From the UHGV virus genome UHGV-0153413: a stretch of 14,300 nucleotides of DNA. One strand, 5' to 3'. Every line of letters starts with the position of its first letter. Within the stretch, counting starts at the first letter, position 1. The notes below the pieces were generated by a model. The model searched no databases. It worked only from the letters and a program-made list of their open reading frames with translations, and was not told where the DNA came from. The translations under genes were made by a program, and so were the position numbers. Shown here piece by piece: positions 9,136 through 11,198 of this stretch. This DNA comes from a virus.

Positions 9136-9852
9136 ATGGAAAATAAAAAATCACTGACGACAGAACAGCTCGAAGACGCTAAGCGGCTTAAGGCTTTGTA
9201 TGAGTCAAAAAAGAAAGAATTGGGAATAACCCAATACTCAATCGCTGATGAACTGGGTATCACCCAAGGAGCGGTAGGGCATTATCTTAATGGCAGAAAC
9301 GCGCTAAACGTTGAGGTTGCATCTGGTTTTGCACGACTGTTGCAAGTCTCAATTGCTGATTTTAGCCAGTCAATTGCTGCCAAGGTTGCAGAACAGGCAG
9401 AAAGCCTTAAGAGCGATGCCAACGTAAGGTATGCAGGGGAATACAGAGCAGGAAAGAGGTATCCGGTGTTAAGCAGTATCCAGGCTGGCTCGTGGTGTGA
9501 AGCATGCGAACCATACACCATTAAAGACATAGATGTTTGGCTTGAGTCTGACGCGCATATTCAAGGTAATGCGTTTTGGCTTAAAGTGGAAGGTGATTCA
9601 ATGACGGCACCGGTTGGGTTAAGCATTCCAGAGGGAACATTCGTTCTTTTCGATACCGGAAGGGAGGCGATCAACGGCAGCTTGGTCATAGCAAAACTTT
9701 CTGACTCTAACGAAGCAACATTCAAGAAGCTGATAATCGACGGCGGAAATAAATACCTCAAGGGACTTAATCCTGCATGGCCTCTCGTGCCAATCAATGG
9801 AAACTGCAAGATTATAGGCGTTGCAATTGAGACAAAACTAAGGCTGGTTTGA
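9136..9852 (+). CDS. cI: CI repressor (HTH-XRE N-domain plus S24 LexA-like autopeptidase C-domain)
   Basis: 238-aa ORF. HTH region QYSIADELGITQGAVGHYLNG, Ala-Gly (SIQAGSW) candidate cleavage site, catalytic Ser in GDSM and Lys in FKKL. Divergent from cro across the operators. Confidence 0.9.
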   Translation: MENKKSLTTEQLEDAKRLKALYESKKKELGITQYSIADELGITQGAVGHYLNGRNALNVEVASGFARLLQVSIADFSQSIAAKVAEQAESLKSDANVRYAGEYRAGKRYPVLSSIQAGSWCEACEPYTIKDIDVWLESDAHIQGNAFWLKVEGDSMTAPVGLSIPEGTFVLFDTGREAINGSLVIAKLSDSNEATFKKLIIDGGNKYLKGLNPAWPLVPINGNCKIIGVAIETKLRLV

Positions 9853-9869
9853 TCACGCAAGGGGCGATT

Positions 9870-10238
9870 ATGGTTGGAACCGCTATAGCAAGCTTTTTTG
9901 GGATGTTGGCAATCTCGACAATTTACGTCTTAGCGCATGCTTTTATTGCGAAATCTCTATCAGAAAAAATAAGCCAGGCTTGGGCGCATAGATCAGCTCG
10001 TTTCATGATTCTTGTGATCATAGCAATACAAGGGATATCTGCATTTATCCTCTATGTATCAAGCTTATACCTATTGTATCAAGGCGCGACATTTACGCCT
10101 TACACCAGTGATTACGGAACTCTATACGATGGTAGTGAAGACATCACTGTGGCTTGGATCGTCTTTGGTTTATCTATGGCCGTGTCTGTTGTAGCAGACA
10201 TCATTAAGGTAATTCTCGTCTTAACCTTCGCTGACTAA
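9870..10238 (+). CDS. Predicted 3-TM membrane protein in the rex position (cotranscribed with cI)
   Basis: ATG 9870 with RBS AAGGGG (a TTG at 9849 overlapping the cI stop is an alternative start). Three hydrophobic helices. Sits between cI and OL/pL, where lambda has rexA-rexB. No recognisable similarity to RexB as I recall it. Confidence 0.6.
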   Translation: MVGTAIASFFGMLAISTIYVLAHAFIAKSLSEKISQAWAHRSARFMILVIIAIQGISAFILYVSSLYLLYQGATFTPYTSDYGTLYDGSEDITVAWIVFGLSMAVSVVADIIKVILVLTFAD

Positions 10239-10323: not shown

Positions 10324-10418
10324 AAATATCCTTTGTATTCATTTGTTTATCATTATTTCATCAAAAATAAATACCTTGGGTATTTACACAATAAAATACC
10401 TACAGTATTCTTTAGCCA
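10324..10418 (+). promoter_or_regulatory. OL operators and pL promoter
   Basis: Operators aaataccttgggtattt (10369-10385) and aaatacctacagtattc (10394-10410) share half-sites with OR; a possible distal site aaatatcctttgtattc (10324-10340). pL: -35 TTTACA (10383-10388), 17 bp, -10 TATTCT (10406-10411). The downstream sequence ATCAGCAGGACGC matches the start of the lambda pL transcript as recalled. Confidence 0.6.
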
Positions 10419-10457
10419 TCAGCAGGACGCTGGAAGCCAAACGGAACAGATTGGCAG

Positions 10458-10498
10458 GCTCTTTAACATTGATGGGATTGTCCCGCCGAAATGCGGGA
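10458..10498 (+). promoter_or_regulatory. nutL (boxA GCTCTTTAA plus boxB hairpin)
   Basis: gctctttaa (10458-10466), 14-nt spacer, boxB tcccgc/cgaaat/gcggga (10481-10498), identical to nutR boxB. Lies about 40 nt downstream of the predicted pL start. Confidence 0.6.
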
Positions 10499-10765
10499 AC
10501 CAAAGAGTAGTTGGCTTTGGGGTGTGGTGAAGCCAGCTAGTCACTGGCAAGTGCTTACCTACTGTTGAGCGGTGAAGCGCTCCCAACGCTAGCAATAGCG
10601 TGGACGAGATGGGGAGCCGCGGGCGATAAGGCCGCCATAACGCGCACGTTGTCGCATGGAAAAATCGCTGGGGTGCCGGTTATACCCCTCCGAATGAGAC
10701 TCAACAAGCTGGAGCTAGACTACCAGCCACCACACCACCAAAGCTAATCATCTGAGGAACAGAAA

Positions 10766-10885
10766 ATGTTAGACATCATGACCAACCCAATTCTCGGTGG
10801 TTTAGTTACCACATTCGCCATCTGCTTCGGTTTCACTATCTGGTCTGAAGTAGATGACTGGATGTGGGAACGCAAAAACAAATAA
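10766..10885 (+). CDS. Small single-TM peptide ORF (39 aa) in the N leader
   Basis: Hand-translated: RBS GAGGAA 8 nt before ATG 10766, MLDIMTNPILGGLVTTFAICFGFTIWSEVDDWMWERKNK, stop TAA 10883-10885. One hydrophobic helix then a charged tail. Below the ORF-track size cut-off. Confidence 0.4.
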   Translation: MLDIMTNPILGGLVTTFAICFGFTIWSEVDDWMWERKNK

Positions 10886-10925
10886 TCATCGACACACAAG
10901 GATGTGCACCTACCCGGAGGTCAAC

Positions 10926-11198
10926 ATGACAGTAGTCATTACATATCTGGCTGACGATAACACCAGAAATCGCCGCAGAGCACGCAGACAGGCTCAACGT
11001 GAACAGGCAATGCAAGAGCAGCGACTGGCGCGAAAAATTGCGCTAAAGCTCTCTGGTTGCGTCAGAGCAGATAAAGCAGCATCACTCGGAAGCCTTCGCT
11101 GCAAGAAGGCAGATGAATGCAGCGGAAGTATTTGCCTGCCAAACGTAGCCATTTACGCGGCAGGCTACCGGAAATCAAAACAACTGACAGCGAGGTAA
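10926..11198 (+). CDS. N: Antiterminator N (arginine-rich motif)
   Basis: ATG 10926 with RBS GGAGG at 5 nt. N-terminus MTVVITYLADDNTRNRRRARRQAQREQ carries an arginine-rich boxB-binding motif like lambda and P22 N. First gene after pL/nutL. The 114-aa track ORF is an upstream extension. Confidence 0.75.
   Translation: MTVVITYLADDNTRNRRRARRQAQREQAMQEQRLARKIALKLSGCVRADKAASLGSLRCKKADECSGSICLPNVAIYAAGYRKSKQLTAR

Follow-up and report, generated by a model that had tools for sequence, protein, structure and literature searches.

The pL transcript encoded in the window, the 14,300-nt stretch of the virus genome UHGV-0153413 that was analysed, carries a structured element that is probably a cis-acting hairpin for processing and translation control of the N leader, as judged from its position, its conservation and its homology to phage lambda. 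The window includes a lambdoid immunity region oriented such that pL transcribes rightwards, in which a cI-like repressor gene (9136-9852) and a membrane ORF (9849-10238) are followed by the operators and pL. The pL promoter was located on the plus strand at 10383-10411 by promoter scanning (TTTACA-17 nt-TATTCT); the annotated pL of HK620 (L002, 1444-1479) maps to 10383-10418 of the window, and identity to lambda ATCAGCAGG suggests a transcript start at ~10418. The nutL site (10457-10498, plus strand) is identical to the annotated nutL of HK620 (L002, 1518-1559); within it, boxA (GCTCTTTAA) spans 10458-10466, and 10481-10498 form the boxB hairpin, which appears in the minimum free energy (MFE) fold of the leader. 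The antiterminator N of 90 aa (10926-11198, plus strand) belongs to the HK620/21 type, matches phrog_271 (E 7e-33) and is 97-99% identical to N of HK620-type loci. The element is placed between nutL and N, on the transcribed strand of the pL transcript and between the nutL boxB and the first translated gene, with the first Shine-Dalgarno sequence after the helix at 10754. The membrane ORF between cI and pL encodes 129 aa and corresponds to phrog_6534 (HkaS-like, no assigned function); its location is that of the rex- or sieB-type genes expressed from the lysogen in other lambdoid phages.

The original prediction described a GC-rich block whose ends pair over about 16 bp with one bulged A, and both features were confirmed. 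The G+C content was 0.58-0.59 over 10500-10750, compared to 0.32-0.45 in the flanks. The closing helix, referred to here as P1, is formed on the plus strand by the 5' arm ggctttggggtgtggtg (10513-10529) and the 3' arm caccacaccaccaaagc (10728-10744), with 10514-10520 pairing with 10738-10744 (7 bp), 10521-10529 pairing with 10728-10736 (9 bp) and A10737 left bulged. P1 closed the MFE fold of 10499-10744 (-98 kcal/mol, z -2.96) as well as the fold of the entire leader, 10418-10940 (z -4.3). As a bare inverted repeat, the two arms ranked only 14th of 16 comparable pairs in an ungapped scan of the window, and such an unremarkable rank means that the reality of P1 must rest on comparison with other phages. 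P1 was judged to be real owing to its conservation and covariation among related phages, as described below.

Comparison with the lambda genome (NC_001416) revealed the arms GGCUUUGGGGUGUGUG and CACACACC-A-CCAAAGC between nutL and N, at the same place as P1. The strands of the lambda helix, at +81-96 and +187-202 of the N leader, are homologous to the arms of P1, the 5' arm in the window being the lambda 5' arm plus one extra G. The lambda helix ends 8 nt upstream of the N Shine-Dalgarno sequence, and the distance from boxB to the AUG of N is ~157 nt. Lambda had originally been credited with only a short leader, which was misleading, as these ~157 nt carry the same helix; lambda's own copy had been missed. 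The two hairpins share their position in the pL transcript, the homologous arms (GGCUUUGGGGUGUG(G)UG with CA(C)CACACC-A-CCAAAGC), the bulged A, a short competing hairpin upstream and a Shine-Dalgarno sequence ~10 nt past the base of the helix. They differ in the interior, which in the window is 198 nt long and unrelated in sequence to the ~90 nt of lambda, in the presence of a 39-aa ORF directly after the helix with N 160 nt further on, and in the type of nutL and N, which in the window is that of HK620/21. Sf6 has nutL, N and arm flanks of lambda type but the exact 235-bp block of the window between them, and HK620 has nutL and N of the window type but an interior of 40 nt between the arms GGCUUUGGGGUGACGUG and CGCGUCACC-G-CCAAAGUC. 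Taken together, the comparisons with lambda, Sf6 and HK620 indicate that P1 corresponds to the base of the lambdoid N-leader hairpin, the interior alone being different. Hence, on sequence grounds, P1 is very probably a homologue of the lambda N-leader stem, and this homology lends support to the earlier suggestion of a regulatory RNA or processing site controlling N. Judging by its sequence, the 5' strand of P1 carries the boxC of nutL, the alternating GU run that follows boxB (PMC6614797); the boxC-like run in the window spans 10519-10529 within the 5' arm, on the plus strand. Short repeat expansions of the GU run were seen in the 5' arms of two loci, L164 and L015 (GGGGTGGGGTGACG; GTGTGTGTGTG). 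The 3' arms had not changed correspondingly, and such one-sided expansions suggest slippage in the boxC-like tract.

A comparison of N leaders for compensatory change, proposed earlier as a check, was made on 240 IMG/VR loci around N genes of the lambda type, the HK620 type and the P22 gp24 type, together with reference phages. The architecture of the N leader and the base of the helix were retained in 242 of the 246 N-gene loci of these three types, the four exceptions being truncated or rearranged. The base, (G/A)G(C/G)UUUG(G/A) paired with (C/U)CAAAG(C/U), was nearly invariant. The upper helix differed wholesale between classes, with versions including GUGUGUG/CACACAC, ACUGGCG/CGCCAGU, GUGUGGUG/CACCACAC, GAUUGGAUG/CAUCCAAUC, GUGACGUG/CGCGUCAC, GUAGCGCG/CGCGUUAC and GUUGCAGGUAG/CUAUCUGCAAC. 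Over 33 distinct arm pairs, 93.2% of the cells were paired as compared to 35-44% with the 3' strand slid, a percentage somewhat inflated by the filter of at least 6/7 complementary bases with which the arms were located and which 242 of the 246 loci passed. Changes on both sides were found at 11 of the 17 base pairs (103 cells), a result matched by none of 500 shuffles, showing that the helix covaries. The presence of G-U pairs in classes A and F, and of wobble changes specific to the plus strand in class E, indicated that the plus strand is the RNA.

The alternative hairpin was also conserved. A competing local hairpin had been predicted upstream of P1, and it does exist, although its first strand lies at 10500-10505 and not at 10499-10504: CCAAAG at these positions (plus strand) is an upstream copy of the base of the 3' arm and can pair with CUUUGG at 10515-10520. 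The hairpin is kept in five nutL contexts, namely those of the window (CCAAAG-9 nt-CUUUGG), lambda (UCAAAGC-AGAAG-GCUUUGG), the 933W type (CCAAAG-UGAA-CUUUGG), a third nutL type (CAAAG/CUUUG) and the P22 type (CCAAAC-7 nt-GUUUGG). The last of these shows a C/G-to-G/C swap, and as the change affects both sides, it argues that the alternative hairpin is conserved and did not arise by chance. The upstream hairpin would compete for the base of the 5' arm and might thereby hold this arm until the 3' arm has been transcribed; it may also, or instead, cap the 3' end of the nutL RNA released by cleavage.

Within the helix, at least 10 unrelated interiors of ~40-198 nt were found, and every interior class folded on P1 as its base (z between -3.8 and -2.3). 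N of the lambda type and N of the HK620 type were each seen together with interiors C, D and E. From the sequences compared, lambdoid phages evidently exchange these interiors as cassettes, with the conserved arms as the recombination boundaries. The interior of the window, E, is a GC-rich structured cassette of 198 nt (10530-10727, plus strand) and, by this comparison, the largest of them. It was 100% identical in Sf6, HK544, HK633, HK446, mEp213, mEp043, Sf101 and Bas106, was present in 59 IMG/VR loci and, with identities never below 95%, in 80 of 5426 complete E. coli genomes, and was paired with at least five nutL/N types, including the 933W-type N and one further N type. Copies diverged by 6-7% were found in three loci (L298, L299 and L300). 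The question raised earlier, whether the block occurs elsewhere, was answered by this search, as all copies lay inside N leaders, with at most three places per genome. Six degenerate patterns derived from the block identified no relative of E among GTDB species representatives, within the sensitivity of such patterns. A metagenome scan recovered near-identical copies, one divergent type that was already known and truncated copies, with no additional covariation power. The first ~117 nt of the block occur alone in a 143-kb metagenome contig (L325) and in E. coli MSB1_9I (H70), with a breakpoint at ~10629-10630 of the window, at which the contigs L324 and L326 also end; in L325 the partial block is joined to unrelated sequence that appears integrase-like by eye, so that this copy is probably what a deletion has left of a prophage.

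The internal structure of E was evaluated on an alignment of 16 variants. The predicted hairpin cgcta-GCAA-tagcg with a GNRA-type loop was confirmed at 10587-10600, extended by CCA/UGG to 10583-10603 (plus strand), and is supported by covariation: two pairs were changed on both sides (C-G to U-A and G-C to A-U), one wobble change was present, the loop varied from GCAA to GUAA, and no cell was broken. The hairpins H1 (GCCAG/CUGGC with loop CUAGUCA; 10532-10548) and H5 (GCUGG/CCAGC; 10708-10727), both on the plus strand, were obtained by MFE folding as well as by RNAalifold; the stem of H1 was invariant, and in H5 one A-U pair had become G-U, a change specific to the plus strand. As H5 adjoins the 3' arm, it can stack on P1, which itself showed one G-C to A-U change among the E variants. 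The H1 loop sequence UAGUC (10538-10542) is complementary to GACUA in the loop of H5 (10718-10722), and both are invariant where the neighbouring bases vary, a hint that the two loops may be in contact. The two MFE-predicted helices of the central domain (10605-10614 with 10685-10692, and 10620-10627 with 10664-10671) were unsupported, one pair being broken in 7 of the 16 variants. The RNAalifold consensus of the 16 variants contained a long-range alternative in place of the GCAA hairpin, backed by wobble-compatible transitions alone; the local hairpin is preferred on account of its double-sided changes.

The region between the helix and N differs from that of HK620, in which AATCATC and GGAGG are adjacent (...CCAAAGUC AAUCAUC GGAGGUCAACAUG(N)). 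In the window, a cassette of 163 nt (10753-10915, plus strand) is inserted between AATCATC at 10746-10752 and the N Shine-Dalgarno sequence GGAGG at 10916-10920. It encodes a hydrophobic ORF of 39 aa (CDS 10766-10885, Shine-Dalgarno sequence 10754-10758, plus strand) that matches phrog_7482, of unassigned function (E 8e-25). In L091 this ORF cassette is found behind interior C, and in other loci the slot between the helix and N is occupied by different small ORFs. Owing to this insertion, the first cistron past the presumed RNase III cut is the 39-aa ORF and N is the second. Insertions recur in this slot, as small ORFs or as ~200 nt of additional DNA (also in L009/L047, L025, L221/L229/L230 and L085/L086). 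A 7-nt direct repeat (AATCATC, 10746-10752 and 10884-10890) brackets the 39-aa ORF. A long imperfect hairpin of ~21 bp is predicted within its CDS at 10807-10869 in both the MFE and the centroid fold of the leader, and this region was the source of a spurious match to mir-1420 in Rfam.

The lambda N leader reportedly contains an RNase III site with boxC in its 5' strand, Kameyama and co-workers (1991) being among the authors named for it. A passage of PMC5725501, citing Wilson 1997 and 2002, places lambda nutL ~200 nt upstream of N and states that N together with Nus factors at nutL represses N translation, that the intervening RNA is highly structured and that RNase III modulates the repression; the N leader is likewise given as a target of RNase III processing in a passage of PMC5371410 (citing Steege 1987). 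By analogy, it is likely that P1 works as the lambda helix does, in that cleavage by RNase III would uncouple nutL from the ribosome-binding sites downstream and so tune early translation. The RNase III of the host would cut the paired arms of P1, the cut would sever the complex of nutL, N and Nus factors from the downstream message, and this would set the translation of the first cistrons, i.e., the 39-aa ORF followed by N. Two features of the window count against this reading. At 16 bp plus the bulge, or ~20 bp if weak extensions or the stacking of H5 are counted, P1 is at the short end for RNase III substrates. Also, the helix is followed by the 39-aa ORF and not by N, so that any control of N may be indirect.

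A comparable arrangement is known from the rrn operons, where boxC lies in the 5' strand of a helix between leader and trailer, and the Nus complex at boxA is believed to retain this strand until its partner emerges (PMC10250234, PMC4807359); the stem at the base of 16S is the site of the first RNase III cut in the rRNA precursor (PMC4807359). In both cases, boxA precedes a GU-rich boxC that supplies one strand of a long-range helix, namely the 5' strand, and the other strand is transcribed only much later. However, the rrn helix encloses 1.5 kb of rRNA in contrast to 40-200 nt in N leaders, and it functions without the N protein and without a translated gene downstream, and the resemblance would best be regarded as an analogy through the common motifs boxA and boxC. 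Transcript data for a relative come solely from P22B, a small RNA of 96 nt from the leader of P22 gene 24 that accumulates in infected cells and vesicles (PMC13397905, 2026). P22B derives from the equivalent leader hairpin of the P22 type, with the base GGUUUGG paired with CCAAAGCC and the bulged A retained. Its interior is unrelated to E, its function is unassigned, and it ends inside the first interior hairpin and 8 nt past the 3' arm. Since these ends do not match cuts in P1, P22B is not simply an excision product of RNase III. A leader RNA that accumulates with ends away from the P1 cuts would thus count against the reading of the element as a processing and translation-control hairpin.

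The main competing view is that interior E is itself the payload: RNase III cleavage in P1 would excise a stable, highly structured RNA of ~210 nt, the helix being mainly an excision site. Since pL is transcribed as soon as infection or induction begins, the excised E could act in trans; decoy, sponge and anti-defence functions are all conceivable. This joint reading is considered unlikely. In its favour, E is far larger than the 40-nt interiors that are evidently enough for HK620-type and most lambda-N phages, it moves independently of the type of nutL and N, and a discrete 96-nt RNA accumulates from the equivalent leader of P22 (PMC13397905); moreover, the helices kept by both folding methods show four compensatory and two wobble changes against four breaks in single sequences. 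On the other hand, copies that diverge by only ~6-7% are too similar to demonstrate selection over most of the interior, the helices in the central domain of E are unsupported, and ten unrelated interiors in one slot fit a generic structural role at least equally well. A role specific to this cassette, possibly in trans, is put forward as a doubtful model. Published work on prophage anti-sRNAs (AgvB/AsxR, Pas) deals with the PR' region and not with the N leader. A broader version appears less likely still: the N-leader hairpin would be a general "RNA cassette holder" whose contents are excised by RNase III, with E as a stand-alone early trans-acting RNA that might, e.g., sequester a host factor or a defence sensor, or, in a related form, the family would descend from or mimic a tRNA precursor. 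In that form, the upper helix would stand for the acceptor stem, the bulged A for the discriminator base and the CCA for the CCA end of a tRNA, and the placing of the first interior hairpin 2 nt in and of the last one abutting the 3' strand may point the same way. Among P22-like Salmonella phage loci, interior class H of the gene 24 leader hairpin (L176, 592-673; also L207, L203 and L225) was called by ARAGORN as a tRNA of 82 nt (Pro-GGG or Ala-GGC), with canonical-looking D (GCUC AGCAGGUA GAGC) and T (ACCAG UUCAAGC CUGGU) arms and with the upper closing helix, followed by A-CCA, as its acceptor stem. The Rfam tRNA model did not match class H, which leaves the tRNA idea as a lead only, and ARAGORN made no call on L241. 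In the window itself, ARAGORN detected no tRNA; a search of Rfam 15 at the gathering threshold gave no match in the window, nor in the leaders of 12 loci representing every class, and a search of 10380-10950 at E<=10 returned noise only, with no tRNA.

The remaining readings treat the block as something other than part of the leader. The window contains an open 60-aa frame with a TTG start (10565-10747), which one annotation pipeline called and which is listed for Bas106 as a hypothetical protein. It is interrupted by an in-frame stop in L298 and by a frameshifting 1-nt deletion in L302, it has no PHROG match and no Shine-Dalgarno sequence, and it is unannotated in Sf6, the HK phages and RefSeq E. 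coli. Nor was there a synonymous excess in its frame or most others (synonymous to non-synonymous changes 4:6, 4:8 and 5:8). A protein-coding function is accordingly the least probable of all readings, being refuted as far as sequence can show. Scarcely more credible is that the block is a MITE-like element with terminal inverted repeats, or that it supplies the RNA, and the 39-aa peptide the protein, of a type I toxin-antitoxin pair, both of which were in line with possibilities raised in the original prediction. The mosaic boundaries at the arms are sharp, as expected of a mobile element; yet the arms are present in all N leaders around unrelated interiors, which assigns them to the site and not to the insert, and the copies are confined to N leaders, at most three places per genome, without a target-site duplication. 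What stood of the inserted-element proposal is that the interior behaves as an exchangeable cassette bounded by the arms, and what fell was the transposon. As for the toxin-antitoxin pair, the hydrophobic ORF does adjoin the block, but Sf6-type loci have E without it and L091 has the ORF next to interior C, so that the two assort independently, and a promoter scan found no promoter on the minus strand; an antisense or antitoxin partnership with the peptide ORF was thus contradicted.

Regarded as a processing and translation-control hairpin of the N leader, the helix belongs to textbook lambda biology and hence reveals no new mechanism. To the best of our knowledge of the literature, the analysis makes three additions: the base of the helix is conserved across phages of the lambda, 21/HK620, 933W and P22 types, as is the competing hairpin, and the upper helix covaries; the interior can be swapped as a cassette, of which at least ten unrelated versions exist; and small ORFs have been inserted repeatedly between the helix and the ribosome-binding site of N. 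Several carriers of E, namely Sf6, HK544, mEp213 and mEp043, are held in culture collections. Should the larger cassettes, E among them, prove to be excised in the form of stable RNAs, they would constitute a pool of abundant, very early and as yet unstudied non-coding RNAs of phages.
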